64,000 nucleotides of DNA, from contig CALXUO010000030.1 of the NCBI GenBank assembly GCA_944391695.1, positions 5,100 to 69,099 on the forward strand, written 5' to 3'. Within the stretch, counting starts at the first letter, position 1; every line of letters starts with the position of its first letter. The position numbers and the translations under genes are program-made. Positions 1,001-58,296 of this stretch are shown one piece after another. The notes under the pieces are model-generated. The model had not been told where the DNA came from and did not search any database. It worked only from the letters and a program-made list of their open reading frames with translations. This DNA comes from an uncultured Alphaproteobacteria bacterium (GTDB taxonomy: Bacteria > Pseudomonadota > Alphaproteobacteria > RF32 > CAG-239).

Positions 1001-1971
1001 ACAGAAAAAATTTAATCAGTGTAATCGTGTTGGCCGTTATTGCTTTGGCGGCAGTATGGAGCGGAGTTTATTTTAGTGTTTGGCAAAATGAAACTAAAAT
1101 GCAAGGAAAGTTGGTGTTTGCCAAGACTTTTGATTTGGGTGATAAGGTCGATCGCATAGTTATTACAACATCTGATGATGTGATTGATCTGAGGCAGGAG
1201 AAAAGTTTTTGGTTGGTGGAAAATAAAGGTGGATATTTTGCCGATTTTTCGACCATACATAGATTTTTGAGCTCAATAAATGAGAGTGTGTATGCAGTAA
1301 AACTGCCTTATAAAAAAGAAACGTTGAAAGAAAATTATTTGCTAAATCCCAAAGAAGATAAAAATTATGGCGGAATGCTGATACAGACTTTTGCCGGTAA
1401 TGAGATGCTTGATGAAATGATTGTGGGGTTGCCAGTAAAAGACGATAAATATTTCTTCGCCAGAAATCTTGAAAAAAAAGAGATTTGGTTGATTGATGGT
1501 GATTTTAATTTGCCGATTATGGCTAAGTATTGGCTTTTGAGGCCGGTGTTGTCGATACCTGAAAATCAGGTGGAAGTTCTTACCATAGGTGAAACATATG
1601 CTCAGCGTGAAAATAAGACACCTTATTTTAAGAATAATTTGGAACAAAATGTTAATGTCGAGGCACTACTTAATGTGTTGAGCGGTATTGTTGTGGTTGA
1701 TGCCAGGAAAAAAGATGATTTTGAAAAAGAAGGACTTGATAAATTGCAATCAAAAGTGATTGATGTGATTACCGTTTATGGCTTGGAAGTTATTTGCAGG
1801 CTTTATTATGACGATAAAAATGTTTGGCTGAACATTAATTTGACAACCACACCTCTTCCAATGTCGGCAGTTAATGATTATATCAGAGATAACCGCTTCT
1901 TGTACGATGGATGGTATTTTGAGATATCTCCGGGTCAGGGGCATATTTTGAGAGATTTTCGTCTGATATAG
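997..1971 (+). CDS. membrane-anchored hypothetical protein, DUF4340-like (GldG-associated)
   Basis: N-terminal TM helix 'ISVIVLAVIALAAVWSGVYF'. 4-nt overlap with the upstream gene suggests translational coupling. Size and position are typical of DUF4340 proteins downstream of gldG. Confidence 0.4.
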   Translation: MNRKNLISVIVLAVIALAAVWSGVYFSVWQNETKMQGKLVFAKTFDLGDKVDRIVITTSDDVIDLRQEKSFWLVENKGGYFADFSTIHRFLSSINESVYAVKLPYKKETLKENYLLNPKEDKNYGGMLIQTFAGNEMLDEMIVGLPVKDDKYFFARNLEKKEIWLIDGDFNLPIMAKYWLLRPVLSIPENQVEVLTIGETYAQRENKTPYFKNNLEQNVNVEALLNVLSGIVVVDARKKDDFEKEGLDKLQSKVIDVITVYGLEVICRLYYDDKNVWLNINLTTTPLPMSAVNDYIRDNRFLYDGWYFEISPGQGHILRDFRLI

Positions 1972-5258: not shown

Positions 5259-5315
5259 ATAATTTGATGATAAAATTTTTAAACTGTGGAGAATTTTTAT
5301 GAAAGGTCGCAAATA

Positions 5316-7910: not shown

Positions 7911-7952
7911 ATTGGTATAAATCAACCCCTTTGGTGGTAAAGGAGGCGCTTG

Positions 7953-8195
7953 ATGCCCAAAAAGATACAGATTTGTATGGGAAGTTCGTGTTTTGCACGT
8001 GGCAATAACAAAAATTTGGATGCCATTATGCGTTATATTAAAGATAACGGATTGGAGGCAGAAGTGGAAATTTCCGGATTGCGGTGTTGCAATCAGTGTG
8101 CAAACGGGCCGAATATTGCTATTGAAGGGGTTGAGTATCATAATGTTGATACCGGAACAATAATTGATATTTTGGATAAGACTTTTAAGGAGTAG
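7953..8195 (+). CDS. thioredoxin-like [2Fe-2S] ferredoxin (NuoE/HydC-type small protein)
   Basis: C-x4-C ... C-x3-C pattern ('CMGSSC' ... 'CCNQC'). Perfect RBS AGGAGG 6 nt before ATG 7953. Confidence 0.6.
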   Translation: MPKKIQICMGSSCFARGNNKNLDAIMRYIKDNGLEAEVEISGLRCCNQCANGPNIAIEGVEYHNVDTGTIIDILDKTFKE

Positions 8196-8200
8196 GACTG

Positions 8201-9958
8201 ATGTCTAGCCGCGAGCATCCGTTGTTTACAATTAAGAACGATTGCCAAGACTGTTATAAATGTGTGCGAGAGTGCCCGGTTAAGGCAATTAAGATTGAAG
8301 ATAATTCGGCGCAAATCGTGCCGGAATTGTGTGTGGCTTGCGGTAAATGCTACAAGGTTTGTCCGGTTAGGGCCAAACAAGATCGAGATGATGTTCCTCG
8401 GGCCAAAAATATGTTACAATCTGGTGAAAAAGTTTATGTATCGTTGGCGCCGTCGTGGGTGGCTGAATTTGAAAATGTTACCAAAGAGCAACTGTTGACG
8501 GCAATTAAGGCTTTGGGGTTTGCAGGGGTTAGTGAAACAGCTCTCGGAGCAGAAGAGGTTTCAGCTCATGTGGTAAGGTTTTTATCAAAGCAGAAAAAAG
8601 GATTGTTTCTGTCAACTGCTTGTCCGGCATTTGTTGAATACATTAATAAATATATGCCTGATTTGAGCGCTAATCTGACGCCAGTGCTTTCTCCGGTGTT
8701 GTCGCATTGTAAATTAATGCGAAAGAAATTGGGAGACGATATTAAAATAGTATTTGTGGGACCTTGCATTGCCAAAAAATTTGAGGCTGACAGAAATGCC
8801 GATTTGTTGAATTTGAGTATATCTTTTAGAGATTTGCGGCGCTGGTTTAGAGAAAAAGGAATTGATTATCATAATATAACCCCAGAAAAAGGAATTGATT
8901 TTGTTTATAAAAGAGCAGAAGAGGGGCGCTATTATCCGATTGAGGGGGGAATGATTGAAACAATTCGTCCTTATGGCGGAATGGATCATGTTTATATGAT
9001 GCAATTGACTGGGCTAGAAAACATTCAACGCGAGCTTGAAACAATAAGAGGAAATATACCTGAAAAGCCGGTGTTTATGGAATGTTTGGCTTGTGAGGGA
9101 GGATGTGTTAACGGGCCTTGCACCAGAAAACTTAAGTCTGGATTTGAAAAAAGAACCAAAATATTGGAGGATGCGAAGGTTTCGGAAAAAACCGGAAAAC
9201 GTAAGCCTGAGGTTGATATAGATAAAGAATATGCCCAAAATCCGGTGGAAAATCATACATATACCGAAGAGCAAATTAAGAGAGTTCTTAATATGCTTGG
9301 TAAATATACTTTGGAAGATGAGATTAACTGCAATGCCTGTGGGTATGATAATTGTCGTAATTTTGCCAAAGCTATTTTGGATGGCAAGGCTGAAATTGAT
9401 ATGTGCGTATCGCATATTAAACAGCAGGCGCAGCGCAAGGCCAATGCTTTGTTGAAATGTATTCCTTCACCGATTGTGATTGTTAATTCCAAGTTGTCAA
9501 TAATGGAATATAATGATTATTTCGTTAAAGAGTTTTGGAATGATGAAGAACATGGTGATATCTATGATAAAAACAATTTGATCGGGGCAAATTTGAGAGA
9601 TTTTATCGGTTTTACCAATTTGTTTTCCGCCTCGCTTGATTTGGGAGAAGATGTTAAAAGAGAAAATGCAAAACATCAGGGAAAAGTTTATGATGTGATG
9701 GTGTTTAATATTGAACAAAAGCAAGTAGTCGGCGGTGTTATTCAAGATGTGACCAATGTGGAAATAAAACGTGAGAAAATTGCCGAAAAGGCCAAAGAGG
9801 TTATAGAGAAAAACTTGGCAACGGTGCAACAAATTGCTTGTACTTTGGGTGAGCATATGGCAGAAACCGAGGTCTTGTTGCGATCAATTGCCAAAGATTA
9901 TGCCGCGGACGATTATGACAAGCCCAATATCACAATTCGCAATAAGAGGGATGAATAG
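8201..9958 (+). CDS. hydS: putative H2-sensing [FeFe]-hydrogenase with C-terminal PAS domain (HydS/HfsB-like, group C)
   Basis: Two N-terminal 4Fe-4S ferredoxin motifs (CxxCxxCxxxCP). H-cluster motifs are present but degenerate: L1 'TACP' instead of TSCCP, L2 'GPCIAKKFE', L3 'MECLACEGGCVNGP'. C-terminal ~180 aa is PAS-like. RBS AAGGAG. Confidence 0.8.
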   Translation: MSSREHPLFTIKNDCQDCYKCVRECPVKAIKIEDNSAQIVPELCVACGKCYKVCPVRAKQDRDDVPRAKNMLQSGEKVYVSLAPSWVAEFENVTKEQLLTAIKALGFAGVSETALGAEEVSAHVVRFLSKQKKGLFLSTACPAFVEYINKYMPDLSANLTPVLSPVLSHCKLMRKKLGDDIKIVFVGPCIAKKFEADRNADLLNLSISFRDLRRWFREKGIDYHNITPEKGIDFVYKRAEEGRYYPIEGGMIETIRPYGGMDHVYMMQLTGLENIQRELETIRGNIPEKPVFMECLACEGGCVNGPCTRKLKSGFEKRTKILEDAKVSEKTGKRKPEVDIDKEYAQNPVENHTYTEEQIKRVLNMLGKYTLEDEINCNACGYDNCRNFAKAILDGKAEIDMCVSHIKQQAQRKANALLKCIPSPIVIVNSKLSIMEYNDYFVKEFWNDEEHGDIYDKNNLIGANLRDFIGFTNLFSASLDLGEDVKRENAKHQGKVYDVMVFNIEQKQVVGGVIQDVTNVEIKREKIAEKAKEVIEKNLATVQQIACTLGEHMAETEVLLRSIAKDYAADDYDKPNITIRNKRDE

Positions 9959-9961
9959 TTA

Positions 9962-11137
9962 ATGAGTGATTCCTTGTTTATTGAGATTGGTTCACACCAG
10001 GAACACAAAGCAACGGAGAGTTGTTTCGGTGATGCCATAGCTTCGGAAAAATTGCCAGAGGAGCAGAGAATTATTTCGGTGCTGTCGGATGGGTTGGGCA
10101 GCGGAGTTAAGGCTAATATATTGTCTTCCATGACAACAAGAATGGCTTTGAAATTTGTCGAAAGCGATTTGGATTTGGTGCGCTCAGCCGAGGTGATGAT
10201 GCAGGCGTTGCCGGTGTGTCAGATAAGAAAAATAAGTTATGCCACATTCTCAATTATTGACGCAACGCTTGAGGGTAAGACACGTATTTATGAGATGGAT
10301 AATCCGCAATGTTTTGTGGTACGCAATTTTGAGCAATATCATCCTTCGCACCATGAAATATCTTCGGATAACTGGAAAGACAGAGTGATAAATATTTATC
10401 AGTTTGTGGCTAAAGAAGAAGACAGAATTATTATAATGTCGGACGGAGTTACGCAGGCTGGACTTGGTAATCCTAAATATCCTTTGGGGTGGCAACGTGA
10501 AGGTGTTTGGAAATTTATTGAAAATCAAGTCAGACGTCATCCTCATATTTCTGCTAAAGATTTGGCTGAGACTATCGTGCATGAAGCCTTGGATAAAGAA
10601 CCGGAAGGAAAAGCCGGTGATGATATCAGCTGTACGGTGGTTTATTTTAGAAAGCCCAGAAAGCTTTTGCTTTTGAGCGGGCCGCCGTTTGATGAAGAAA
10701 AAGACCATGAAATTGCCGAAATGATTGATTATTATGATGGTAAAACCGCAATTTGCGGCGGAACTACCGCTAATATTATTGAGCGCGAGCTTTGTTTGAA
10801 ATGTGAAATGGATAAGACGACATTTGATCCCAATATTCCGATGGCATCGATTATGCCCGGTATTGATTTGGTAACAGAAGGTATTTTGACATTGACCGAA
10901 GTGTACCGTATGCTAAAAGAAGGAATCGATGAGGACAAGGATAATGCGGCTACCAGATTGGCAAAGCTTTTGCTTGATTCTGATAAAATAGATTTTGTTA
11001 TCGGTACCAAAATCAATGAAGCGCATCAGGATCCTAATTTGCCGATGGAGCTTGACATTCGCCGAAATATTGTTAAAAAGATTTTTAGGCTTTTGCAGAG
11101 CAAATACTTAAAAGAAATAAGTGTTAAGTACGTTTAA
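9962..11137 (+). CDS. PP2C-family serine phosphatase (SpoIIE/RsbU-like)
   Basis: 'VLSDGLGSGVKA' and 'MSDGVTQAG' metal-binding motifs of PPM phosphatases. Sits immediately after hydS, as in hfs-type clusters. Confidence 0.7.
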   Translation: MSDSLFIEIGSHQEHKATESCFGDAIASEKLPEEQRIISVLSDGLGSGVKANILSSMTTRMALKFVESDLDLVRSAEVMMQALPVCQIRKISYATFSIIDATLEGKTRIYEMDNPQCFVVRNFEQYHPSHHEISSDNWKDRVINIYQFVAKEEDRIIIMSDGVTQAGLGNPKYPLGWQREGVWKFIENQVRRHPHISAKDLAETIVHEALDKEPEGKAGDDISCTVVYFRKPRKLLLLSGPPFDEEKDHEIAEMIDYYDGKTAICGGTTANIIERELCLKCEMDKTTFDPNIPMASIMPGIDLVTEGILTLTEVYRMLKEGIDEDKDNAATRLAKLLLDSDKIDFVIGTKINEAHQDPNLPMELDIRRNIVKKIFRLLQSKYLKEISVKYV

Positions 11138-11159
11138 TTGAGAAAAAAGGATAAAGCAC

Positions 11160-11435
11160 ATGGAAAAAATACAAGTTAAACTTTGTGCCGGGACAGCCTG
11201 TTTTGTTATGGGAGCTCCGCAAATACAGGCTTTGGAGTTTGCCGCACCTTCCGATATTGCCGATAAAATAGAGGTGAAAGAAGTTAGGTGTATGAATCAT
11301 TGCAGCCAAGGTCAAGGTTATAACAAAGGGCCGTTTGTGGAGATTAACGGTGAAGTTATACAAGAGGCTACCTTGGAAAAAGTGGTTGCCAGAGTTAGAG
11401 AATTGATTGCCAAAGAGGAAGAAAAATCGTGTTAA
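11160..11435 (+). CDS. thioredoxin-like [2Fe-2S] ferredoxin (second copy)
   Basis: 'CAGTAC' ... 'CMNHC' gives the C-x4-C ... C-x3-C pattern. Overlaps the hydA start, suggesting translational coupling. Confidence 0.6.
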   Translation: MEKIQVKLCAGTACFVMGAPQIQALEFAAPSDIADKIEVKEVRCMNHCSQGQGYNKGPFVEINGEVIQEATLEKVVARVRELIAKEEEKSC

Positions 11436-12880
11436 TACCCAAAAATTATGCCAACCAAATGCGTAGCAGAATTCTGGTTAAAGTGGTTGAAAGCTTTTAT
11501 AAAGACAGATTTGAAACGGCCGATGAGATACCTATAGAAATGCGCCCGAAAGATTATGATTCCAGCAGGTGCTGCATTTATAAAGACAGGGCCATCTTAA
11601 AATACAGAATGATGGCGGCGATGGGCTTTACGCCGCAAGATGAAACAAACGAGGCAAAGCAGCTTAAAGATTATGGCAAAGAGGCGTTAAAAAGACAAAA
11701 TCATGCCAAAAGTTGTTTGGCGGTGATTGATATTGCTTGCTCGGCTTGTGTCAAATCGCAATATATGGTTACCGATGCGTGCCGGGGGTGTTTTGCCAGA
11801 CCTTGTGTGATGAATTGCCCTAAACAGGCGATTTCGATTGTTCATGGGCGTTCACACATTGACCCTGGTCTTTGTGTGTCGTGCGGAAAATGCATGGAAG
11901 TTTGTCCGTATCATGCAATTGTTAAGCTGCCGGTGCCGTGCGAGGAGGCTTGTCCGGTGGGGGCTATCAGAAAAGACGAGTTTGGGGTTGAGCATATTAA
12001 CGAGGATACCTGTATCTCTTGCGGCAAATGTTTGCAGTCTTGCCCATTTGGCGCAATTGTTGAACGCTCGCAATTGGTTGATGTCTTAAACCTTATTCAT
12101 AACAGTGATAAAAAGGTGGTGGCTATGTTGGCACCGGCGATTGTGGGACAGTTTCCGTTTGAAATCGGTCAGGTTGTCGGGGCTTTGAAAAAGGCTGGCT
12201 TTGACGATGTTATCGAGGTGGCGGCCGGGGCAGATGTTACATCTAAAAATGAGGCTGCCGAATTTATTGAAAGAATGAAAGAAGGCAAGAATTTTATGAC
12301 AACCTCTTGTTGTCCGGCTTATTACAGAGCTGCCAAGGTACATATTCCGGAGTTGGCGCCGTTTGTTTCTAACACCAAAACACCAATGTATTATGCTGCA
12401 GAAATGCTTAAAAAAGAGCAACCTGACAGTGTATCGGTATTTGTTGGTCCTTGTTTGGCCAAGAGAACCGAGGCGGAATATGATCCTAATGTTGATTATG
12501 TTTTGACCTTTGAAGAAATAGGTGCGATGTTTGTTGGTGCCGGAATTGAAATCGGCGATTGTGAAGCTCAAGAATTTGCCAAAGTATCGTCAGCTCAAGG
12601 GCGAAACTATCCGCTTTCGGGCGGAGTAGCCGGAGCGGTTGGTAATTTGGTGGACGGCAAGGTCGATTTTAGGCCGGAAAGAATTGACGGATTGAGCAAA
12701 GAAAATATGAAGTTGCTTAAGAAATACGCTACCAAAGGCTCAGAGAACAATATGATTGAAGTTATGTGTTGTGAGGGCGGATGTGTGGCAGGGCCTGGTT
12801 GTATTGCTTTGGCCAAAAAGGCAGCACGGCAAATTGAAACCTATGTTGCTCAAGGTACTAACCAAAAAGACATGAAATAG
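11429..12880 (+). CDS. hydA: [FeFe]-hydrogenase catalytic subunit with ferredoxin-like 4Fe-4S domains
   Basis: Canonical H-cluster motifs: L1 'TTSCCPAYY', L2 'VGPCLAKRTE', L3 'MCCEGGCVAGPGC'. Three CxxCxxCxxxCP clusters. Unusual N-terminal extension with a 'SSRCCIYKD' motif. Start is GTG at 11429 or ATG at 11459. Confidence 0.85.
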   Translation: MLIPKNYANQMRSRILVKVVESFYKDRFETADEIPIEMRPKDYDSSRCCIYKDRAILKYRMMAAMGFTPQDETNEAKQLKDYGKEALKRQNHAKSCLAVIDIACSACVKSQYMVTDACRGCFARPCVMNCPKQAISIVHGRSHIDPGLCVSCGKCMEVCPYHAIVKLPVPCEEACPVGAIRKDEFGVEHINEDTCISCGKCLQSCPFGAIVERSQLVDVLNLIHNSDKKVVAMLAPAIVGQFPFEIGQVVGALKKAGFDDVIEVAAGADVTSKNEAAEFIERMKEGKNFMTTSCCPAYYRAAKVHIPELAPFVSNTKTPMYYAAEMLKKEQPDSVSVFVGPCLAKRTEAEYDPNVDYVLTFEEIGAMFVGAGIEIGDCEAQEFAKVSSAQGRNYPLSGGVAGAVGNLVDGKVDFRPERIDGLSKENMKLLKKYATKGSENNMIEVMCCEGGCVAGPGCIALAKKAARQIETYVAQGTNQKDMK

Positions 12881-15998: not shown

Positions 15999-16080
15999 TT
16001 TAATAAAATTATTTTATCTTGTCAATCAAAATAAAAAGCTTATCTTATAGTCATATGTAAATTTTTAAGGAGAAATGCGA

Positions 16081-17259
16081 ATGAAAGCCGTTGAGATAAA
16101 AAAAGATATATTTTGGGTGGGTGCTAAAGATTGGAATTTGAGAGAATTCCACGGGTATAACACGCCGGATGGATCAACCTACAATAGTTATTTGATTATG
16201 GATGACAAGATTACTTTGGTTGACGGAGTTAAGGCTTATATGAGCAATGAGCAGATTGCAAGAGTTAAATCCGTAATCGATTTTTCTAAAATAAATTATC
16301 TAATCGTTAATCATGTGGAGCAAGACCATTCGGGAAGTGTGCCGGAGATTATGAAATTGGCTCCGCAGGCGATAATTGTTACCAATGCCGCGGGTAAAAT
16401 GGCTTTGGAGGCGCATTTTGACACGACAGGCTGGCAATATCATATTGTTAAGACCGGCGATGTGCTTAATATCGGCAAACGTAACTTGAGTTTCTTGACA
16501 ACGCCGATGCTGCATTGGCCGGATTCAATGATGACCTATGTGGCAGAGGATAAACTATTGTTGCCCAATGACGGATTTGGTCAACACTTGTGCTGTGAGG
16601 CTTTGATGGTTAGGGATTATCCTAATGATTTGGTAGTTAAAGCAGCCAAAAGTTATTATGCCAATATTTTGTTTCCCTATGGTATGCAGGCCGAAAAAGC
16701 TTTGTCTTCGGCAGCCGAGATGAAGCTTGATATTGATATGATTGCGCCATCGCACGGGCTTATTTGGTCGGGCAAAGATGAGGTTAATCAAATTTTGTCG
16801 CTTTATGCCGATTGGGCCAAAGGCAAAACGGTTAAAAAAGCAGTGATAGCTTATGATACGATGTGGGGGGCAACCGCAAAATTGGCCGAGGCGGCCATGG
16901 CCGAATTTCAGGATGAAGGAATCGAGGTGGTTAAGCACAATTTGGGGGTCAGCCATATCTCTGATGTTATGACCGATATCTTGGATGCCGAATATGTTTT
17001 GGTCGGGACACCAACACTTAATAATCAAATCTTTCCTCGGGTGGCGGCGTTTTTGACCTATATGAAAGGCCTTGCGCCCAAGGGAAAGAAAGGACTGGCT
17101 TTTGGTTCCTACGGCTGGCGGCCGGGGGTTGTTAAAGAGGTCAAACAAGTGATGGATGATCTCGGTTGGCAGACGGCAGAAGTTTTTGAAGAAAAGTATA
17201 CGCCGAAGTCTGATATTTTGAATCAGTTTGCGGAAAAAGTTAAAGCTTTTATCGGATAA
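16081..17259 (+). CDS. flavodiiron protein (A-type FDP; O2/NO reductase, metallo-beta-lactamase plus flavodoxin domains)
   Basis: 'HxExDH' diiron motif ('NHVEQDHSG') and a C-terminal flavodoxin-like domain. RBS AAGGAG spaced correctly for ATG 16081. Confidence 0.85.
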   Translation: MKAVEIKKDIFWVGAKDWNLREFHGYNTPDGSTYNSYLIMDDKITLVDGVKAYMSNEQIARVKSVIDFSKINYLIVNHVEQDHSGSVPEIMKLAPQAIIVTNAAGKMALEAHFDTTGWQYHIVKTGDVLNIGKRNLSFLTTPMLHWPDSMMTYVAEDKLLLPNDGFGQHLCCEALMVRDYPNDLVVKAAKSYYANILFPYGMQAEKALSSAAEMKLDIDMIAPSHGLIWSGKDEVNQILSLYADWAKGKTVKKAVIAYDTMWGATAKLAEAAMAEFQDEGIEVVKHNLGVSHISDVMTDILDAEYVLVGTPTLNNQIFPRVAAFLTYMKGLAPKGKKGLAFGSYGWRPGVVKEVKQVMDDLGWQTAEVFEEKYTPKSDILNQFAEKVKAFIG

Positions 17260-21348: not shown

Positions 21349-21528
21349 ATGGCAGATGTTTTGTTTGAATATGTAAGAATGGGAGCTTCGGTTAGGGTTA
21401 CGGCAATTGAACCTGACACCAAAACCGAGGCGGTAGTAGTTGTGCCGGCAGGATTGTCGGAAAAAGAAATGCAGGCAAGAGCCATGCAAAAATTGTTGTA
21501 TATTTTGAAAAAGAAAGATGAAGCCTGA
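21349..21528 (+). CDS. small hypothetical protein (59 aa), absent from the ORF track
   Basis: ATG lies 1 nt after the parC stop (TAAaATG). Translation is 'MADVLFEYVRMGASVRVTAIEPDTKTEAVVVVPAGLSEKEMQARAMQKLLYILKKKDEA'. Codon usage is consistent with neighbouring genes. Confidence 0.45.
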   Translation: MADVLFEYVRMGASVRVTAIEPDTKTEAVVVVPAGLSEKEMQARAMQKLLYILKKKDEA

Positions 21529-21654
21529 ATTCCTTGTGGATAAAGTATTGTCGTAAGCTGATTGTATTTCCAATTTAAAAAAATATGCTTATAATGCTCT
21601 CTGAAGTCCGTTGATTTGGACTTTGGGGAATATTTGTTATGGGGAATTGACCAG

Positions 21655-24600
21655 ATGTCTGATAAAGCAGCTGAGAATATCGGCAATGTTACGGTTTTGC
21701 CGCAATTTATGAAAGAATCAAAAACACCTATTGAAATTGAAGAAAAAGAATCTTGGCTTAATAATAATTTGCACAAGCTGATGATTAGTGTCAGTGTGGT
21801 ATGGTTTGCCGTGGTTTTAATCTATATCACCCAGTTTTTTGGATGGTCTAATCTGTTTTTGATGATGCCAGATGAGTTTGGTGGATTTTTGGCCGGGGTT
21901 ACGTTGCCTTTGGCTATAATTTGGGTAGTGATGGCTTATATTGATCGTGGAAGCTCTTTTAAACATGAGGCCAAATTTTTGCGGGCTTATATGAATCAGT
22001 TGGTATATCCTGAAGATGGCGCTCCGCAAACAGCTAAAGCGATGGCTGATGCAATTCGTTCACAAGTGGTGGAGTTGCAGCAGGTGTCTAAGCTTGCTCA
22101 TGAGCAGACATCTAAAATTAAAGATGCTATTAAAGAAAATGTGGATGATTTTGCTAAATTGGTTGGTACTTTGGATAATTATTCTTCAAAAACCATTGTT
22201 GAATTGAGCGATGGGGTTAAGTTTTTGATGGCAAATTTTGAAAACATACTTAATAAAGCTGAAAATTCTACTCAGAGTTTGGCCAAAATAAATCAGGATT
22301 TTATTGACAGCGGTAACGGGATAGAAACTTCTCTTAATGATTTGTTTGTTAAGATGTCGCCTCAGTTAAAAGAGTTGAAAGAAGCTGCTGAACAATTGAA
22401 AGATATTAATACATGTTCGGCAAATGATATAGCAACGGCAAATCAGAATCTTAAAAATTTTGCCGAAAATACCAATGTAACCTTTAATGCCGTACGTGGT
22501 GTTTTGGAAGGGCAGACTAATTTACTTAAGCAAATTGGTGATACTGCCGTAAATAACTGTAATATACTTAAAAATTCAATTGCATCTGAAGTATCTGGTC
22601 TTGAAGACAGTTTACAAAATCATGTGCAGAAGCTTAATTTGTTTTTGGAAGAAGTGGGAAAAGAAGCAAAACAAAAAACAGAAGAAGTTACAAAGTCTGC
22701 CATATCTAATATAGGAATTATTAATAATAATCTGAAAACCGGAATGAATAATATTGATGATGCCGTCGATTTACAAATTAGAAAAATGGATGAAGCTTTA
22801 GCTAAACACAATAAGGATATTGCCGCGTTTATAAAAGTTTTGGAAGAAAAAGCTGAGGGGGTTAACAAGAAATTTACAACTCATGGCGAACTAATTAATC
22901 AAGAGCTTGATAGACTTATGGTTAGAAGTTCTAATTTGGAAGATGCTATTGCTATGCAGGTATCTAATCTTAGCGGTGTATCCGATAAGGCTATTGCCGC
23001 TATGCAAGAGGTGGAAAATGCTTTGAGCAGCAATGTATCCGTTTTGGACGAGAAAGTATTGGCAGCCAACGGAGATATTGTGTCATATATGACTACATTA
23101 CAAGAAAAGACATCTGACTTTGGGGAGATCAGCAAAGACAGTATTGATAAGATTGTTGATTTTACCGAACTCTTGAATCAGCGATACGGTGAATTGCAAA
23201 AGACTATTGCAGCCGGATTTTCCCAAATGCAAGATGCTGATAAAGGAATTAATCTGTCGACCGAAAATTTGATGGTGCAGACAGCTCAATCTGTCGAAAA
23301 TCTTAATCAGGTCGCCGCGTTGATGCAAAAGCAAACTTCGGTATTGAACGAGGCTTCATCAATAGTGGTTACTCAAAGCCAAATCAGTGAAGCATCTTTG
23401 GCGCAACAACAAAAATATATTACCGATACGGCATCTCGAGTAGAAGATATTAAAAATGAATTAAAGCGTCAGATTGATGAATTATCGGCATCATCTGCCA
23501 GTTTGGAGCAGGACGCCGTAAGTATTTTGGAATTGCTGAAATCTAATATTGCTAAAATGCTTTCGCAATGTAATGATGCTCTCAATAAAAGCAAAGCTCT
23601 TAATGATAATTTATCGGAGCAGGCAAATCAGTTTGATACTTCTGCCAACAGGACTTTGGCAAAAGTTACGCAGTTTGAAAATGTTTTGATTAAACAATCG
23701 CAAAATATGGAAACTTTGGCTAATAATATTGAAACAAAAAGTGATGCAATTGCTAAATCGTTGGATGCTCACACACGAAAATTAAGCGAAACGACGGACA
23801 ATTCAGAAATTGTTTTGGCTAAGTCCATAACTGATTTTGAGGCTAAGAGCGACAATATTAATACTATTTCTCAAAATGCTGCCAAGTATATAAGTGAAGT
23901 AACTGCCGGAATGGATGAAAAAGTGGCGGCGCTTAATGTTATGTTTAGGCAACAGCAAGCTGATTTTTATGCTTATTGTGATAAAGTGTCAGAAAATACA
24001 AATAAGATGGCGGATATTTTGAAATCACAAATGGCAGGAGTTGAGGAGGGTGCCGATAAACTGTTTGCTCGGTTGGTTATTTTGGAGGAAGATACCGGAC
24101 GCAGAGCAGAAACAGTTATTGCCAATTCTCAGAAATCAGTACAGGATTTGGCCGAAATTGAAAAAATGTTGGCAAACAAGCATGAATTAACCGAAAAAAC
24201 AGTTGATGCAGCTATTAATAAACTTAAGACAATAAATGATGAAATTAATAATCATTTGCATGGTTTTGATGCTGCAATGATGTCTGTGAAAACAAATATG
24301 GGTGAAACTTTGCAACAAATTGAAGATAGCGAAAAAGGGATGAAAGAAGTTCATCAAAATATGCTTAAAGATAATGAAATATCTTGGCAGAAACTTAATG
24401 AACAAACCAAATATATGGAAAATGCAGCTTTGAAATTGTCTTCACAAAGTGAAAATATTGCCAATATGCTTGATATGCAGAAAAATAATATTACTGAGGT
24501 TATTAATAATTTGGCTACTCAGGCAAGGTTGGGAGAAGCCTCTCTGGCACAACAGTATAAATATCTTACGGACGCAACGGTTAAAGTGGCTGATAAAGTT

Positions 24601-25830
24601 CAGGAAATAAGCACTTCGTTTAATGATGGAACATCTGATATATTTGAAGTTACCAACAAATTATCATATGAATTTGAGGTGTTGGGTGACAGATTGCTTA
24701 AGGCTTGTGATGCTATTAGTAAATCTTCAAAAGATTCGATTAAAAATATTGATCAAGTAAGTTTACGCTTAAATCAATGCAGCGAGGATTTGGATACGGC
24801 TATTTATCATTCGGTTGAAAATATTAGCGGAGTATTTAACGAGTATGAAAAATATTTGGCCGGGTTTAATACCGTTACGGCTGAAACTTCTACCGGGGTG
24901 GTCGAAATTAATAATTTGATTACGGCACAAAGCGATAAGATGGTGAAAATATCGGAAGATACCAAAAAATTGGTTGATTGCTTTAATAACGTTTTGAGCG
25001 ATACATCAAATCAATTGGCGGACAGAGCCAATGACGCTTATGAAAAGGTGAAGAGCCTGGGACAAGATTTGAAAAAGCTCGGACTTGAAATGGATGATGC
25101 GGCGAAGTTAAGCGCTACGCATTTGGAAAAATCTGGTGATAAGTTGCGGGCTTCAATTAATGAAATTGCTGCAAATGCCGAAAGAATATCAAATACTATT
25201 TTGTCATCGGGAGAGGTTTTTGTTAAACAATCACAAGCTCTGACAGCGATGGCAGATGATACGGCGGCTAAAGTTAATGACAGTATCGGTAATTTGGTTG
25301 AGGCGGGTAAGTCTTTTGAGGCTCAGGGACAGGCTATTGTCAAAGAAAGTATCAGATTTAATGATACAATTAATGCTCAGACCAAGAATTTGAGTGAAAG
25401 TGCGGTTAAAGCCGAGAAAGCCATGAAAGGTTTGGCTACAACCTATAAAGACGTTAAAATTGATTCTTTCCTTAAAGATGCCGGCAAGATTATTAGTCAT
25501 TTGGAGAATATATCGGTTGATGTTAACAGACTTTTGAATCCTAGGGATGAAGATGATTTGTGGAAGAAGTTTTATAATGGCGATACTCAGGTATTTATTC
25601 GTTCTATTGCCAAAAATATGACCGGTACCCAAATAAACGCTTTACGCAAAGAACTTGAGAAAAACGGGGATTTGAGAAAGTTAGTAAATGTTTATATGAG
25701 TGAGTTTGAAACTTTGGTCGAAAAATCAAAAACACATGAATATTCGGCAGCATTGATGGCGGTGATTTCGGGAGCTGATTTGGGTAGATTGTATTATGTG
25801 TTGGCCAAAGCCTTAAACAAAATAAACTAG
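21655..25830 (+). CDS. giant membrane-anchored alpha-helical coiled-coil protein (1391 aa), function unknown
   Basis: Two predicted TM helices near the N-terminus. About 1100 aa of N/Q/S/E/K-rich helical heptad-like sequence with an internal duplication (see findings). Distinct C-terminal globular region of about 150 aa. Start is ATG 21655 (RBS gggga) or TTG 21616. Confidence 0.7.
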   Translation: MSDKAAENIGNVTVLPQFMKESKTPIEIEEKESWLNNNLHKLMISVSVVWFAVVLIYITQFFGWSNLFLMMPDEFGGFLAGVTLPLAIIWVVMAYIDRGSSFKHEAKFLRAYMNQLVYPEDGAPQTAKAMADAIRSQVVELQQVSKLAHEQTSKIKDAIKENVDDFAKLVGTLDNYSSKTIVELSDGVKFLMANFENILNKAENSTQSLAKINQDFIDSGNGIETSLNDLFVKMSPQLKELKEAAEQLKDINTCSANDIATANQNLKNFAENTNVTFNAVRGVLEGQTNLLKQIGDTAVNNCNILKNSIASEVSGLEDSLQNHVQKLNLFLEEVGKEAKQKTEEVTKSAISNIGIINNNLKTGMNNIDDAVDLQIRKMDEALAKHNKDIAAFIKVLEEKAEGVNKKFTTHGELINQELDRLMVRSSNLEDAIAMQVSNLSGVSDKAIAAMQEVENALSSNVSVLDEKVLAANGDIVSYMTTLQEKTSDFGEISKDSIDKIVDFTELLNQRYGELQKTIAAGFSQMQDADKGINLSTENLMVQTAQSVENLNQVAALMQKQTSVLNEASSIVVTQSQISEASLAQQQKYITDTASRVEDIKNELKRQIDELSASSASLEQDAVSILELLKSNIAKMLSQCNDALNKSKALNDNLSEQANQFDTSANRTLAKVTQFENVLIKQSQNMETLANNIETKSDAIAKSLDAHTRKLSETTDNSEIVLAKSITDFEAKSDNINTISQNAAKYISEVTAGMDEKVAALNVMFRQQQADFYAYCDKVSENTNKMADILKSQMAGVEEGADKLFARLVILEEDTGRRAETVIANSQKSVQDLAEIEKMLANKHELTEKTVDAAINKLKTINDEINNHLHGFDAAMMSVKTNMGETLQQIEDSEKGMKEVHQNMLKDNEISWQKLNEQTKYMENAALKLSSQSENIANMLDMQKNNITEVINNLATQARLGEASLAQQYKYLTDATVKVADKVQEISTSFNDGTSDIFEVTNKLSYEFEVLGDRLLKACDAISKSSKDSIKNIDQVSLRLNQCSEDLDTAIYHSVENISGVFNEYEKYLAGFNTVTAETSTGVVEINNLITAQSDKMVKISEDTKKLVDCFNNVLSDTSNQLADRANDAYEKVKSLGQDLKKLGLEMDDAAKLSATHLEKSGDKLRASINEIAANAERISNTILSSGEVFVKQSQALTAMADDTAAKVNDSIGNLVEAGKSFEAQGQAIVKESIRFNDTINAQTKNLSESAVKAEKAMKGLATTYKDVKIDSFLKDAGKIISHLENISVDVNRLLNPRDEDDLWKKFYNGDTQVFIRSIAKNMTGTQINALRKELEKNGDLRKLVNVYMSEFETLVEKSKTHEYSAALMAVISGADLGRLYYVLAKALNKIN

Positions 25831-25846
25831 GGGTATATAATATAAA

Positions 25847-26182
25847 GTGCCGCAAACGTATATTAACAGTTATGTCGAAAGCTTGCAAAAGCAAATTGCT
25901 GATGTTGCCTCAAGAATAAAACGAAAAAACTCAGCAAAAGAGTTTGCCGACAATAAGGATACGTTACAAAATTATGGGTTTAAACTACGTTCTGAGGTCG
26001 AAGTGCAAGCATATAGGCTTGTTTGTGAAGAGACTGCATATACGTTATTGGGGCAAGGTGAGGGGGCTAATAGTTCGTATGTTGCGGGTTTATATGGTTT
26101 TATAAGCAAGGTGGACAGGCCTTCGTCGGTAATTGACGGGCTGGAATTTGAAAATAATCAGCAATTTGATTTTAAGGTATAG
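25847..26182 (+). CDS. hypothetical protein (111 aa)
   Basis: Open frame with a GTG start and a weak RBS, packed between the giant gene and dusB. No recognisable motif. Confidence 0.35.
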   Translation: MPQTYINSYVESLQKQIADVASRIKRKNSAKEFADNKDTLQNYGFKLRSEVEVQAYRLVCEETAYTLLGQGEGANSSYVAGLYGFISKVDRPSSVIDGLEFENNQQFDFKV

Positions 26183-31230: not shown

Positions 31231-32262
31231 TTATTTGAGGTTGATGCCTTTTTGTTTGCAGCGGTTGTTCCATTTTAGTTTGGCATAAACCTGCATATCG
31301 GTAATGGTGTCGGTTTCGTCGACAATTTCTTTGCCGATAATGGTCTCTATAATGTCTTCCAAGGTTATGATGCCAATCCAATTGCCAAGCTGATCAACAA
31401 CCAAAGCCATGTGGTTGTGGTCTTCCAACATTGCCGAAAGAACATCTTGAAGCCGTGCCTCGGGAGAAAATGAACGCATGTCGCGGGCAAATTTGTCAAC
31501 TTTGTCTTCTTCTTTGGCTTTGTAAGTGCTTGATTTGTGGATGTAGCCTTTGAATATTTGCTTTTTCTCATCAATAATCGGAAAACGAGAAAAAGGCGTT
31601 GATGATAAAAATTTGGCAAAATCTTTTATCTTGGTTCCTGGTTTTATGGTATGAACAACCGTGCGTGGCGTCATGACATCTTTTACATCAAGCTGGCGCA
31701 AGTTAATAGTATTTATGACGACACGATATTCAATATCGTCAACAACTTTGGCCGCTTGTCCCATTTTGGCCAGAGCTTTAATTTCTTCTTTAATATTTGA
31801 ACAGTCAGTATCAGTTGTAAACCATCTGGTAATTAACGCTGATAGCCAAATAAACGGTTTCATTACCCAAATAATGATATTAAGCGAGGGAACCATAATC
31901 GGTACCAGAGCTTTCCAATATTTGGCACCAATCGATTTGGGCAAAATCTCCGAAGTGGTGAGAATTAAAAATGTCATGATACCACTGGCCCAGCCAACAT
32001 ATGCCTGACCATAAATTTCTGCAACTTGAGCACCTACACCGGTCGCACCGACGGTGTGGGCAATGGTGTTTAGAGAAAGAATGGCGGCTAAAGGCTCATC
32101 AATGTGTTCTTTCATATATGATAATTTTTTAAAAAGTGCGGGATTTTTGTCTTCAAGTTGGGCAACATAGCTCGGAACAATCGATAAAAGTGCGGCTTCT
32201 AACACAGAACATATAAATGAAACCGCAATTGCCATAATGGCAAAAACCAATAAAATAAACAT
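31231..32262 (-). CDS. CNNM/HlyC-CorC family transporter (DUF21 plus CBS pair)
   Basis: Four N-terminal TM helices followed by tandem CBS domains. RBS AAGGA. Confidence 0.8.
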   Translation of the reverse strand: MFILLVFAIMAIAVSFICSVLEAALLSIVPSYVAQLEDKNPALFKKLSYMKEHIDEPLAAILSLNTIAHTVGATGVGAQVAEIYGQAYVGWASGIMTFLILTTSEILPKSIGAKYWKALVPIMVPSLNIIIWVMKPFIWLSALITRWFTTDTDCSNIKEEIKALAKMGQAAKVVDDIEYRVVINTINLRQLDVKDVMTPRTVVHTIKPGTKIKDFAKFLSSTPFSRFPIIDEKKQIFKGYIHKSSTYKAKEEDKVDKFARDMRSFSPEARLQDVLSAMLEDHNHMALVVDQLGNWIGIITLEDIIETIIGKEIVDETDTITDMQVYAKLKWNNRCKQKGINLK

Positions 32263-32431
32263 TTTTTCCTTATTTGTTGTTAACGACTATTTGTTAATAA
32301 CATCTTTTTTTATAAAAATAAAGTATAATTATAGTTTTATTTACTATTTTTGTGCGGGGAGGAGATGTTATTTGTCGTTGTGGCAATTATATAAAAACCA
32401 GAAAATTATAATATTGAAGCGAGAGAAGGGG

Positions 32432-33634
32432 ATGCGGACGCAAAATTTATCGACTAAAGTTTATAATATCGGACATAATTATAAGATGGTAAGGCCCGAA
32501 AAAAACAAATGTCTGTTGTTTTTTGAAGACGGAGACGACAAATTGTTGGCTTCAATCGAGGGATGCCAAAATATATTTAACCGGGTGATTTTGCCACCTT
32601 ATAAGCAAAGCCTTAATCAGGATGAAAAAAGATATTTGTTATCTTTTATCAGGCAAAATAATTTTTTTATTACGGCTGAGATGGCTGCTGATCTTCAAAT
32701 CTCGGTTATTAAGTATGCCGGCGGAGAAGAAGAATATTTGTCGGAAAATCAGTTGGTGAATAAAATTGCCGAAGGAATAGATTTTGCCAAAATTTATGTC
32801 GGAAAAATGAAAGTTCATACTCTGAAAATTCCATCTGAGGCCAAAGGAACATATTATAACTTTTATAATGCTGAAATAAAAAAACTCATTGTGGCGGAAA
32901 ATTGTGATCTTAATATTGATTTTAGAGATAACAATGTGGTCGAAACTATTGTTATGGGCGATAATTTCGCCGGAACAATAAATATGTCACGAACTGTTGT
33001 CGAAAATATCTCATTGGCTGATAATTGTCGTTGTAATTTGACTGTAAGCGATGCCAAAAAGTGCTTTAATTTGCGGCTTGGCGATTTCTACCATGGTAAT
33101 CTTATAATCAATAATTCGTGTTTGGCGGATATGAAAATAGGAGATTTTTCTTATGCCGATATAATACTCAATAACGATGTAGTAAAAAAAGAAATGGCTT
33201 TGGGTGATTATTTTAGAGGTAATCTTCATATAATCAACCAAAATGCTAACATTCTTGAAATAGGCAACAATTGCAAAGGATTGATTAAAATTGAGAATCC
33301 AAATCATAATATGAGCATAAGAAAAATTATAGTCGGTGATGATTTTGCCGGAGATATGATTATAGACGATGATCAAAATATCAGAATATTGGAGTTTGGT
33401 GCCAGAGCTGTGGGAAATTTTAGTGTTTTTGCCTGTAAACGCTTGTCTTTGATAAAGGCCGGAGCTGATAATATGCTTAATATAGAGAGCAAATGTTTTA
33501 TAAAAGATATTAAATCTTTTGAAAATATACGATATTATGTTTTTGATAATGATGAAAAAACAAATACTTGTATGCCTTTTTATAAAAAAGTATATTATAC
33601 TATTCGTAAAATGGTACATAATCTTTTTATTTAG
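32432..33634 (+). CDS. BspA-type leucine-rich-repeat (LRR_5-like) protein
   Basis: At least 8 tandem ~21-aa units of the form 'L..I.IGD.F.GN..I', for example 'IVMGDNFAGTI', 'LRLGDFYHGNL', 'IGDFSYADI', 'LGDYFRGNL', 'VGDDFAGDM'. Very AT-rich. ATG 32432 chosen; the upstream ORF extension overlaps the CNNM gene. Confidence 0.5.
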   Translation: MRTQNLSTKVYNIGHNYKMVRPEKNKCLLFFEDGDDKLLASIEGCQNIFNRVILPPYKQSLNQDEKRYLLSFIRQNNFFITAEMAADLQISVIKYAGGEEEYLSENQLVNKIAEGIDFAKIYVGKMKVHTLKIPSEAKGTYYNFYNAEIKKLIVAENCDLNIDFRDNNVVETIVMGDNFAGTINMSRTVVENISLADNCRCNLTVSDAKKCFNLRLGDFYHGNLIINNSCLADMKIGDFSYADIILNNDVVKKEMALGDYFRGNLHIINQNANILEIGNNCKGLIKIENPNHNMSIRKIIVGDDFAGDMIIDDDQNIRILEFGARAVGNFSVFACKRLSLIKAGADNMLNIESKCFIKDIKSFENIRYYVFDNDEKTNTCMPFYKKVYYTIRKMVHNLFI

Positions 33635-36804: not shown

Positions 36805-36846
36805 AAAATCCTCAGAAGTTGTGCAAACTCTGAGGATTTTTGTTTT
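36805..36846 (+). terminator. rho-independent terminator after rpsD
   Basis: 11-bp stem aaaatcctcag / ctgaggatttt, then TTTTTGTTTT. Confidence 0.65.
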
Positions 36847-36907
36847 AAATAGAATAAATATAAGATACACTCTGTCTATCTTTTGGTATTGTGATGTTAA
36901 CCCTAAT

Positions 36908-39652
36908 ATGAAAAGGACAGAATTTATGGATGATATTCATCTGGATGATCCGAGGAAATTTTCTGCCAAACAAATAAAAATAGAAATAGAAAACGCCTCT
37001 AAAAAAAGAAATATTTGGCAATATTTGGCTGATTTGCTGGTTAAAACTTTAATTTGCGCTACATTAGTAGCAATTGATTTTACCCTGTTTGCCAACGCCG
37101 GAAACTATAATATATTTGTCTCTAATACTGATTTTACTCCTGAAGTAGGACATATTTATATTGCTATATTTTTATGTAGTTTTGTTATAATGCTGATTGC
37201 TTCGTTTTGGCCAAAATTGGAAAATATGGTTTTGTCTTTGTGTTTTGCGCTTATGACAATTGCGTTGATTAATCAATTTGCCACGTTTGAAAAGCACTCG
37301 GGATTGCTCATAATTTTTAACGGAATTTTCAGCGATGGTATAAATGCAGTATTGTATGAGTATGCTTTCTTGATTATCGGTGTTATTGCATTTGTTGTTT
37401 TTTGGATAGGGATTAGTGCGCTTAAAAGATCTTTTCGGTTTTATTTTTTGTGTGGATTGTTGGCCGTTTGGGGATGGATATTAAGTGAGGCTTATTTTAA
37501 TACGTCATCACAATATTTTAGGACTGTTGCATCTTCGCCTACACTTCGGGGGGATGATAATGGAAAGTTGTTGATTGTTTTGTCTTTTAACAATCTGACC
37601 TCGGTTGATAATTTGTTGAGCTTGAGCAATGAAAAAACACAAAATGTTGAGATAAAAAAGAGTGCTAATAATTTGCTTGGTTTTTTTGATATCAACAATT
37701 TTGTTTTGTATCCTAATGCAACGGTGAATAATCCTTATGAGCCGTTTTTGAATTTGGTATCGCTTTATAATCCTGGGAATGAAACGGAGGCCTCTTCTCA
37801 TGTAATGTCATCTGCGGAAAGGCAAGATTATTTCGATTTTAGCGCTATACAAAAAGACAGGCTTTATATTAAGGATAGTTCTCTTTACAAAATGTTACAA
37901 AAAGAAGACTACCGGATTAATGTTTATCAGACCAGAGATATTGATACCTGCTATTTGGATAATAAGTTGGCGGCGGCCGTATGTCGAGAAAAAGTTAATA
38001 TGCCGATTGCGTTCAACGAGGATATTTTTACCTCTGTGGATAAAACAGTATTGTTGACAGCTCAATGGCTTAATTCTATAGGTCTGATGCAATCAATAAA
38101 CTCAGTATTAAAGGCGGCGGAATACATAATACCAGGCAATAGTTTGAAGCCTTTGGGGTTTGATATAGATAAACTTTATGTATTGAACTCCTTTAAGGTA
38201 TTTGATTTGATTGTTGAAAGTATTGATAAGCAAAGCGGTAATCAGGCGTATTTTGCAATTATTGATTTGCCGTCTGATATGTATGCTTATGATGAGTTTT
38301 GCCAACTTAAAAAAGTTGATGAATGGAAAAGTGAGGAAAGTGTTGCTTTTGCTAAGTCTTCTTTGGAAAGTAGGCGCGAAGCTTATGCAGATCAGGTTAA
38401 TTGTTTGGTTGGTAGTTTGGAGCGTTTTATGCAACAGCTTGATAAAATGGGGCAACTTGACAATGCTACAATAGTTATTGACGGTCTGAACAATCCGCAA
38501 AGTTTGCTAAAAGATGAAGACGATTATTTTAGGCGACAACAAAGTAAAAGTCAGGTGATGTTTGCTATAAAACCAGAAAACGCTCAAAAACCAGAGATTG
38601 ATTATAGCGTTTGTAGGGTTGATGATATTGTAAATTCATATTTAATTACTCATAAGCCATGCGAAGAGTTTGTCGGAATTAGAACAACCGAAAAGAATAT
38701 GAAGCAGATTCGTGATTTTATTGAAAAAAATAAGTATAAAGACGATGTTGTGGAGGTCGCATCTCAAAACTTTGAGGAATGGGTAAGTGCTTGGATGGCT
38801 CATAATCAGTATGAAAACTATGCTCAAAAGAAAAAATTTGAGTCATCGGAAGAACAAAATGTCGATGATAACCAAATTGTAGAACTTAAGGAGAATGCTG
38901 TAAGCGAAAAGGTTGTCGAAGATGTGCCGGAGCAAAAATTGCCAAGTATTAGTGTAGCGGCTCAAGAGATGGATGTTGCTGAGAACGACGAACAGAATGA
39001 TGAAGTTTTGGGATTGGAACAAGATGCCGTAAATGAAAATAATTCGAATCAAGATGTTTTTGAAAATTCGGAAACCAAAGAGGAAAATACGGTTGAGGTA
39101 ACTAAGCCGGAGATGGAAAAAACAGAAGATATCACTGCTACAGAGAATCCTTTGACTGATAATACAGAACCTGATGTGGATGTTGCTGATAATAATGTTT
39201 TGCCAGGAATTAATAATACAGAGCAAACTACCACAGATGCAAAATCTGATATTGATACGCTTGGCAAGGATAAAGAGACTATGACAGAAGAGGTTGTTGA
39301 AGATGCTGTAGTTTCGGAAGATGTTATTCCGGATACGGTTTTTGATGTTAATGAAGACAGCAACACTACCGAAGCGGCTATTGAAAAAGCCAAGCAAGCG
39401 CTTAAAGTAAAAAAAGAAAAGAAAAAATTGTCAGAACGTGAAATTCCTAAAAAGAAACTTGATACTTTGGTTAAGGATATTGATATCCTGACTAAAAATG
39501 AAGACTTTAGGCAGGTGTTGGAAGCTCCGGTTGCTGAGGGGCAAAATCTTTCACCGGAAGAGTTAAAAAAACAATATCATCAAAATATTAAGGAGGCCGC
39601 CGATAAAATCGAAAATAACGTTAATCTTGAGGTTAAAGTTATTGAAAATTAG
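36908..39652 (+). CDS. polytopic membrane protein with a large extracytoplasmic domain (distantly sulfatase/LtaS-EptA-like architecture) and a long acidic disordered C-terminal tail
   Basis: Five or six N-terminal TM helices. Middle domain of about 350 aa. The last ~270 aa are E/D/N/T-rich low complexity. The ORF-track start at 36821 lies inside the rpsD terminator, so the first plausible ATG is 36908. Confidence 0.55.
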   Translation: MKRTEFMDDIHLDDPRKFSAKQIKIEIENASKKRNIWQYLADLLVKTLICATLVAIDFTLFANAGNYNIFVSNTDFTPEVGHIYIAIFLCSFVIMLIASFWPKLENMVLSLCFALMTIALINQFATFEKHSGLLIIFNGIFSDGINAVLYEYAFLIIGVIAFVVFWIGISALKRSFRFYFLCGLLAVWGWILSEAYFNTSSQYFRTVASSPTLRGDDNGKLLIVLSFNNLTSVDNLLSLSNEKTQNVEIKKSANNLLGFFDINNFVLYPNATVNNPYEPFLNLVSLYNPGNETEASSHVMSSAERQDYFDFSAIQKDRLYIKDSSLYKMLQKEDYRINVYQTRDIDTCYLDNKLAAAVCREKVNMPIAFNEDIFTSVDKTVLLTAQWLNSIGLMQSINSVLKAAEYIIPGNSLKPLGFDIDKLYVLNSFKVFDLIVESIDKQSGNQAYFAIIDLPSDMYAYDEFCQLKKVDEWKSEESVAFAKSSLESRREAYADQVNCLVGSLERFMQQLDKMGQLDNATIVIDGLNNPQSLLKDEDDYFRRQQSKSQVMFAIKPENAQKPEIDYSVCRVDDIVNSYLITHKPCEEFVGIRTTEKNMKQIRDFIEKNKYKDDVVEVASQNFEEWVSAWMAHNQYENYAQKKKFESSEEQNVDDNQIVELKENAVSEKVVEDVPEQKLPSISVAAQEMDVAENDEQNDEVLGLEQDAVNENNSNQDVFENSETKEENTVEVTKPEMEKTEDITATENPLTDNTEPDVDVADNNVLPGINNTEQTTTDAKSDIDTLGKDKETMTEEVVEDAVVSEDVIPDTVFDVNEDSNTTEAAIEKAKQALKVKKEKKKLSEREIPKKKLDTLVKDIDILTKNEDFRQVLEAPVAEGQNLSPEELKKQYHQNIKEAADKIENNVNLEVKVIEN

Positions 39653-53555: not shown

Positions 53556-53557
53556 GG

Positions 53558-55726: not shown

Positions 55727-55728
55727 GG

Positions 55729-58292: not shown

Positions 58293-58296
58293 AAGT

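Follow-up and report, generated by a model that had tools for sequence, protein, structure and literature searches.

The best-described relatives of the protein considered here are GPR and RgsE, which act at the growing pole in the Rhizobiales. GPR of Agrobacterium tumefaciens (Atu1348) is cytoplasmic, with two N-terminal transmembrane (TM) helices, about 1,700 aa of continuous helix and an essential C terminus. At the growth pole it assembles into a ring of six foci, and complementation requires the C-terminal 221 aa (PMC8262873). RgsE of Sinorhizobium meliloti (SMc00190) also occupies the growing pole, and its interaction partners are TolQ (binding detected by two-hybrid analysis), RgsA and RgsS (PMC7327166). 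The Brucella abortus homologue of RgsE sits at the new pole and has been described as essential (PMC9938171). Emcibacterales and Rhodospirillales also hold RgsE homologues, which Krol et al. (2020) reported as "more distant"; they occur without the other Rgs proteins and possibly have a different role (PMC7327166). TipN has been termed "analogous" to GPR (PMC13170164). Here, we analyzed a stretch of 64,000 nucleotides (the window) from an uncultured alphaproteobacterium (assembly GCA_944391695.1, contig CALXUO010000030.1, positions 5,100 to 69,099 of the forward strand), in which one open reading frame (ORF) encodes a giant protein of 1391 aa. At a probability of roughly 60%, we regard this protein as a distant, structurally variant scaffold of the GPR/RgsE family that is anchored in the inner membrane. 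The original prediction, made from this DNA alone, had called it the best candidate for an undescribed system. That view was not borne out, as the family has three studied members (PMC8262873, PMC7327166, PMC9938171), and the accompanying idea of a landmark or scaffold fits the homology to the polar scaffold GPR/RgsE.

In sequence comparisons, the family link of the giant protein rests on its C-terminal domain and its architecture. A distinct, nonrepetitive C-terminal domain had been proposed, and we could confirm it as a separate conserved unit of ~130 aa with a confident AlphaFold2 fold of eight helices (pLDDT, 86; pTM, 0.73). A hidden Markov model (HMM) of this domain matched GPR with 46.8 bits (E = 6e-8), and the match rose to 84.7 bits (E = 1e-19) when the model was broadened with family members. 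Reciprocally, an HMM of 112 Rhizobiales C-terminal fragments matched residues 1234-1390 of the giant protein (52.5 bits; E = 5e-9), and BLASTP aligned residues 1279-1391 with GPR residues 1988-2099 at 24% identity (E = 8e-8). The HMM E values, in both directions, are scaled to 1.8 billion sequences (1.8e9), whereas the BLASTP E value is unscaled. The GPR sequence was read by optical character recognition from Fig. S3 of PMC8262873 and comprises 2099 of the 2115 residues, with minor errors possible. The C-domain profile also retrieved Sinorhizobium, Agrobacterium, Mesorhizobium and Rhizobium proteins at ~1e-35, none of them with a Pfam annotation. With forward and reciprocal HMM matches and a BLASTP match in agreement, the homology of the C-terminal domain to the GPR C terminus is firmly established at the sequence level. 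Two C-terminal fragments of family members (P0200 and P0212) carry the precomputed annotation PF27605, which is newer than the Pfam copy that we searched and may be a recent model for part of the family.

The overall architecture is shared as well. The giant protein has two N-terminal TM helices, and its second TM helix (TM2) and juxtamembrane region are collinear with GPR residues 127-198, which hold TM2 and the juxtamembrane "PE" segment; a broadened HMM of the N-terminal module scored 19.6 bits against this part of GPR, which supports the link but is not significant at database scale. As in GPR and RgsE, alpha-helix then continues with hardly a break for more than 1,000 aa (hydrophobic periodicity of 3.576 over residues 110-1260), and the homologous domain of ~115-130 aa lies at the extreme C terminus. 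The giant protein is shorter (1391 aa) than GPR (2115 aa) and RgsE (2089 aa).

The ORF at 21616-25830 on the plus strand is uninterrupted, encodes 1404 aa when counted from its TTG codon and is the longest of the window, the runner-up being 943 aa long; the claim of a 1391- to 1404-aa ORF, the largest of the window, thus holds. Translation from the ATG at 21655, which has GGGGA ~10 nt upstream, gives 1391 aa. More than 200 full-length homologues, most of them 1388-1395 aa long, align from this ATG, and their lengths indicate that it is probably the true start; residues are numbered from it throughout. The protein is as biased in composition and as helical as originally described, with A (9.7%), L (9.5%), K (8.7%), N (8.5%), S (8.3%) and E (8.0%) each at 8-10% and P at 0.6%. 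Proline occurs 8 times in the whole 1391-aa protein, with a single instance across residues 125-1295, and P1296 is the sole proline of the last 1,100 residues. Searches of Pfam, NCBIfam and PDB sequences with the whole protein returned no match above cut-off, neither to a tape-measure or SMC-like family nor to any other known family over its full length.

Hydropathy analysis (Kyte-Doolittle, 19-aa windows of >1.6) confirmed the two predicted N-terminal hydrophobic helices as L42-F62 and F78-I96. Conservation was examined in an alignment of 26 homologues with 44-81% identity to the giant protein. The loop between the two helices, GWSNLFLMMPDEFGG, has 13 of its 15 residues invariant, with S65 among the variable ones. 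Conservation is extremely high in residues 34-190, poor in 200-560 and better again in ~560-680 and 950-1200, and the C-terminal domain is conserved. Lysine and arginine flank the hairpin, N-terminal of TM helix 1 (TM1) and C-terminal of TM2, and are absent from the 15-aa loop, so the simplest topology would be N-in/C-in, with ~1,300 residues in the cytoplasm.

The region between the hairpin and the C-terminal domain has a single sharp hydrophobic period of 3.576 (residues 110-1260), whose power of 757 compares with a maximum of 129 in 200 shuffles. Power at 3.50 is at background level, so the predicted rod departs from the canonical heptad coiled coil. The long coiled coil of the original prediction therefore stood as a long cytoplasmic helical rod but not as one of the canonical heptad type, its period being 3.576 and its repeats being 25 residues long. 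The phase of the rod drifts slowly and without jumps. Very few indels separate the 26 homologues in the rod, even at 44% identity (3, 4, 7, 8, 11, 15, 25 and 29 residues), and most of these lengths are close to whole numbers of helical turns.

In a profile self-comparison, the best five offsets among 3-159 were 25, 50, 75, 125 and 100, which scored above offsets that also span whole turns (18 and 43, for example), and the offset-25 diagonal ran ungapped for 793 aa. When residues 370-1162 were arranged in rows of 25, bulky hydrophobic residues fell on registers 1, 8, 12, 15 and 19 (62-79%) and small or semihydrophobic residues on registers 4/5 and 22/23. Each 25 residues thus hold 7 core positions (5 bulky, 2 small) in 7 turns, and 25/7 equals 3.571; the stripe is coiled-coil-like, and no enrichment of K/R was found at the polar/apolar boundary of the rod. 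These patterns indicate that 25-residue (7-turn) repeats build up ~1,150 residues of amphipathic helix with essentially no break.

Superimposed on these repeats is the internal duplication of ~385 aa that had been noticed originally and that we confirmed at an offset of 382 aa by motif, by tiles and by profile diagonal. Two copies of the motif EASLAQQxKY, at residues 579 and 961, lie 382 aa apart (residues 592 and 974 when counted from the TTG). Tiled BLASTP matched residues 524-598 with 888-980 at 28% identity (E = 7e-8), and profile-profile alignment of tiles gave four independent best matches, every one at an offset of exactly 382, that together cover 364-660 versus 746-1046. In the ungapped profile self-comparison, offset 382 was again at the top, scoring 129.6 over 259 aa (351-609 versus 733-991) against a maximum of 26 for shuffled columns. 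The agreement of motif, tiled BLASTP, profile-profile alignment and ungapped diagonal indicates that the duplication is real, ancient and ~260-300 aa long. Its offset corresponds to 106.8 helical turns.

To define the family, we aligned 537-aa orthologues from other metagenome-assembled genomes (MAGs) with three giant proteins, treating the rod as insert columns, and used the resulting profile for an exhaustive search of 1.84 billion representative proteins. The search yielded 2,210 clusters at E <= 1e-3, with 1,239 at E <= 1e-10. The best 150 clusters span 326-1900 aa, and most of the full-length ones among them have the N-terminal module near the N terminus and the C-terminal domain at the extreme C terminus. 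The named members, from Minwuia, Novispirillum itersonii (WP_184263344, 845 aa) and Roseospira visakhapatnamensis (WP_184043908), are labeled "hypothetical" or spuriously; the spurious automatic names among distant members include "tape measure," "MlaD," "SbcCD," "YhgE" and "MCP." The rods of non-Rhizobiales members have the same 25/50/75 repeat signature as the giant protein. On the evidence of these profiles, this is a large family in which the length of the rod differs from clade to clade.

The 537-aa orthologues occupy the same genomic slot, upstream of dus-trkA-hfq-hflX. They correspond to giant-protein residues 1-260 plus 1101-1391, and the 840 residues by which they are shorter amount to 234.9 turns. 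AlphaFold2 models the rod of a 537-aa orthologue as one unbroken helix at low confidence (pLDDT, 62). A scan of species-representative genomes, which used an alignment of close relatives and the loop pattern MMPDEFG and recovered close relatives from gut MAGs only, found 295 loci with an intact giant ORF. The best 80 of the 295 loci all come from MAGs of uncultured Alphaproteobacteria of the gut or rumen, with human, ruminant, chicken and mouse as hosts, and have 38-96% identity; NCBI assigns one scanned relative, Candidatus Scatocola, to Rhodospirillales. Because length and phase are tight within clades and several-fold different between clades, the comparison suggests that rod length itself is a functional parameter.

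By analogy with GPR/RgsE, we infer that the giant protein likely serves as an oligomeric cytoplasmic rod on the inner membrane that spatially organizes envelope growth or polarity. The rods would pack laterally into a homo-oligomeric coiled coil with weak supercoiling that, if fully extended (~0.15 nm per residue), could be up to ~170 nm long. Docking of the rod, to the membrane or to a partner in it such as TolQ, which RgsE binds, would fall to the invariant hairpin and loop, and the C-terminal domain would mediate higher-order assembly or partner binding. At a pole or division site, the assembly would then organize envelope growth or polarity as a spacer or ruler, in the manner of GPR/RgsE in the Rhizobiales. 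The rod would have grown at least partly by the phase-preserving tandem duplication of 382 aa, its length being specific to the clade (537 versus 1391 aa in the same slot). Very long, non-heptad coiled-coil polarisome scaffolds also take part in the polar growth of Streptomyces, namely, Scy and FilP, which have no membrane anchor, are unrelated in sequence and differ in repeat length. Walshaw et al. (2010) reportedly described their repeat as 51 residues long, with ~3.64 residues per turn.

Several observations weigh against the assignment to a GPR/RgsE-type scaffold. Significance against GPR at database scale is limited to the C-terminal domain, the match of the N-terminal module being weak (19.6 bits), and the C-terminal domain has no informative structural or sequence neighbor in the PDB. 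The rod of the giant protein has 25-residue repeats with a period of 3.576, whereas that of GPR has 11/22-residue repeats (11, 22, 44, 66) with a period of 3.65. At E <= 1, PF01442 does not match the giant protein, whereas it matches GPR, the positive control, with 136.7 bits (cut-off, 90). The proline-rich, low-complexity linker of GPR (residues 1890-2000) is missing from the giant protein, with its 8 prolines in all. The host is an uncultured anaerobic gut alphaproteobacterium outside the Rhizobiales, and the orders with distant homologues do not have the other Rgs proteins (Krol et al.), so the cellular role outside the Rhizobiales may differ.

A broader and more tentative proposal is that the Rhizobiales GPR/RgsE proteins are one branch of a larger alphaproteobacterial family (~2,200 clusters at 50% identity) that combines the TM hairpin and the C-terminal domain with an exchangeable rod, and that the rod, outside the Rhizobiales a phase-perfect coiled coil of 25-residue repeats, is a genetically encoded molecular ruler or spacer setting a cellular dimension. 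Such a ruler would fix, for example, how wide a polar ring is or how far a partner lies from the membrane, in bacteria not known for polar growth. Rod length is nearly constant within clades (to a few residues) and spans a roughly five-fold range of protein lengths between them (326-1900 aa), and the natural rod-length variants of 537 and 1391 aa make the ruler hypothesis testable. What is conserved is the membrane hairpin and the C-terminal domain, the latter lacking both a solved structure and a model in the Pfam copy searched, and the rod varies in length and repeat type; the conserved termini thus narrow the search for partners and assembly contacts. As the family reaches into anaerobic gut commensals and spirilla, its role may be broader than polar growth of the Rhizobiales type.

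Other readings of the giant protein have to be weighed against a GPR/RgsE-type scaffold. TipN of Caulobacter crescentus (CC_1485; 882 aa) functions in polarity and flagellum placement, not in wall growth. The giant protein could similarly be a landmark of the new pole, one that marks the pole derived from division and directs flagellum placement and ParA-driven segregation, and such a role could coexist with the scaffold model. The two proteins, compared by architecture only, are grossly alike: in each, a pair of TM helices at the N terminus precedes a long cytoplasmic part of coiled-coil type. The giant gene lies next to parC and recO, and the family extends beyond the polar-growing Rhizobiales to Rhodospirillales and related taxa. 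We nevertheless consider this reading unlikely: the sole demonstrated homology is to GPR/RgsE, the likeness to TipN being architectural, and the neighbors are generic housekeeping genes that indicate no specific function. TipN is the shorter protein, and the NCBIfam search gave no TipN-named match. Slightly less likely still is an apolipoprotein-like lipid or membrane binder, as hypothesized by the authors of the GPR study, whose amphipathic helices would lie on the inner membrane or on lipid bodies and organize lipid or membrane synthesis. The ~1,150-aa rod is strongly amphipathic, GPR itself matches PF01442, and some homologues have faint matches to PF01442, ApoLp-III or DUF948. The absence of a PF01442 match from the giant protein, even at E <= 1, argues against lipid binding, as does the hydrophobic stripe, which takes up only 7 of 25 positions (5 bulky, 2 small) and is coiled-coil-like. 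Class A lipid-binding helices, unlike this rod, have K/R enriched at the polar/apolar boundary, and the period of 3.576 differs from the 3.67 typical of 11-mer lipid-binding repeats.

It is improbable that the rod is a long-range signal-transmitting tail, as in ZorA or a chemoreceptor, relaying an event at the membrane to an effector domain at its tip. ZorA has a similar long, cytoplasmic helical tail extending from an inner-membrane anchor, PADLOC ZorA models do match the rod (best match, 46.7 bits; E = 4.5e-13), and one 537-aa orthologue is named "methyl-accepting chemotaxis protein" at NCBI. However, several ZorA models hit different parts of the rod (residues 124-1066) and always with the ZorA tail (profile positions 316-696), a scatter expected from shared helical composition. 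The giant protein has two TM helices only and no MotA/ExbB/TolQ channel domain, Pfam gave no match to a chemoreceptor signaling or HAMP domain, and ZorB-, ZorC- or ZorD-like genes are absent from its neighborhood, which is one of conserved housekeeping synteny in 82 of 83 loci. We therefore rejected the chemoreceptor and ZorA readings, whose defining domains and neighbors are absent, the similarity to ZorA being restricted to helical tails. Almost no weight can be given to a phage tape-measure protein, an SMC-like protein or an assembly artifact. The matches behind the first two are weak (PHROG tape measure, 23.4 bits over residues 144-405; SMC TIGR02169, 21.7 bits against a cut-off of 729), no phage genes lie nearby, and Pfam detected neither an ATPase head nor a hinge. 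An artifact would be at odds with the intact ORF in 295 loci and with neighbors kept in the 83 loci examined, at 38-96% identity. Weak scores, conserved synteny and an intact ORF together refute all three.

The giant gene lies in the order recO-parC-X-dus-trkA, X being the giant gene itself, within a conserved housekeeping block (recO-parC-DUF6898-X-dus-trkA-hflX) that is kept in 82 of 83 related loci. Downstream, dus is found 3' of the giant gene in 82 of the 83 loci examined, with trkA after it in 79; upstream, recO, parC and the small DUF6898 gene are present in most of them. The host-interaction role in a "reduced genome" put forward by the original prediction found no support in this conserved setting. 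The small ORF between the giant gene and dus shares its frame with dus, from which it is separated by a stop codon; searches of Pfam, NCBIfam, PHROGs and PADLOC assigned it to no family. It is conserved in a subclade; in other clades the ORF is missing and dus is directly next to the giant gene, and yet others have a gap of 400-600 bp. The coordinates of all features are collected in the table.

Features of the giant-protein gene and its immediate neighbors (window positions; residues in the 1391-aa numbering)
Feature	Residues	Position	Strand	Basis or remark
DUF6898 gene, 59 aa, between parC and the giant gene		21349..21528	+	PF21839, 73.8 bits; present in 68/83 loci
Giant-protein gene, 1391 aa	1-1391	21655..25830	+	Frame open from TTG 21616; stop codon 25828-25830
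Conserved N-terminal module (TM hairpin and first cytoplasmic helix)	34-190	21754..22224	+	Column identity, 0.73-0.95
Predicted TM1	L42-F62	21778..21840	+	Kyte-Doolittle hydropathy; 5 Lys precede
Predicted short periplasmic loop GWSNLFLMMPDEFGG	63-77	21841..21885	+	Most conserved stretch of the protein
Predicted TM2, followed by conserved juxtamembrane YIDRG...LVYPE	F78-I96	21886..21942	+	Hydropathy, homologue alignment
Predicted cytoplasmic alpha-helical rod	~100-1262	21952..25440	+	Hydrophobic period of 3.576, near-absence of Pro
Internal duplication, copy 1	351-609	22705..23481	+	EASLAQQQKY at 579; motif, tiled BLASTP, profile diagonal
In-register degenerate 25-residue repeats, ~32 (at least 32)	370-1162	22762..25140	+	Profile self-comparison, register table
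Internal duplication, copy 2	733-991	23851..24627	+	EASLAQQYKY at 961; offset of 382 aa from copy 1
C-terminal all-alpha domain	1262-1391	25438..25827	+	Homologous to GPR/RgsE C terminus
ORF of 111 aa, between the giant gene and dus		25847..26182	+	tblastn matches at the same position in 35/83 loci, 27-94% identity

No Rgs or MreB/RodA genes, nor other cell-shape genes, were found within the 64-kb window. Its remainder encodes anaerobic metabolism and housekeeping functions, including AdhE, [FeFe]-hydrogenases and Rnf. The segments at 5286-12880 and 52980-59313 hold AdhE, two [FeFe]-hydrogenase-like genes that flank a SpoIIE/PP2C phosphatase gene and an Rnf cluster with ApbE, and a gene for a flavodiiron-type protein lies at 16075-17259. 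This predicted gene set is consistent with a strictly anaerobic gut alphaproteobacterium.

Some further ORFs of the window stood out. The 943-aa ORF at 36821-39652 (+) had no Pfam match at 1e-5 and lies directly 5' of an ABC-transporter permease and a double ATPase gene. The same search left the 324-aa ORF at 997-1971 (+) and the 465-aa ORF at 32237-33634 (+) without a match. In the 506-aa ORF at 62362-63882 (-), a phage-lysozyme domain (PF00959) was found at residues 258-378 only, and the N-terminal half was unmatched. Among the related loci, one (L080) lies on an 829-kb sequence, JAISVX010000003.1, that is titled "MAG: Lactobacillaceae bacterium" and yet has the alphaproteobacterial order recO-parC-giant-dus, at 38% identity; to judge from this gene order, the taxonomic label is probably wrong. 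The GC skew of the window is 0.2-0.36 over ~1-42 kb, where nearly all genes are on the plus strand, and about zero or slightly negative past ~44 kb, where most genes are on the minus strand, a shift that may reflect gene strand bias or a nearby replication landmark.

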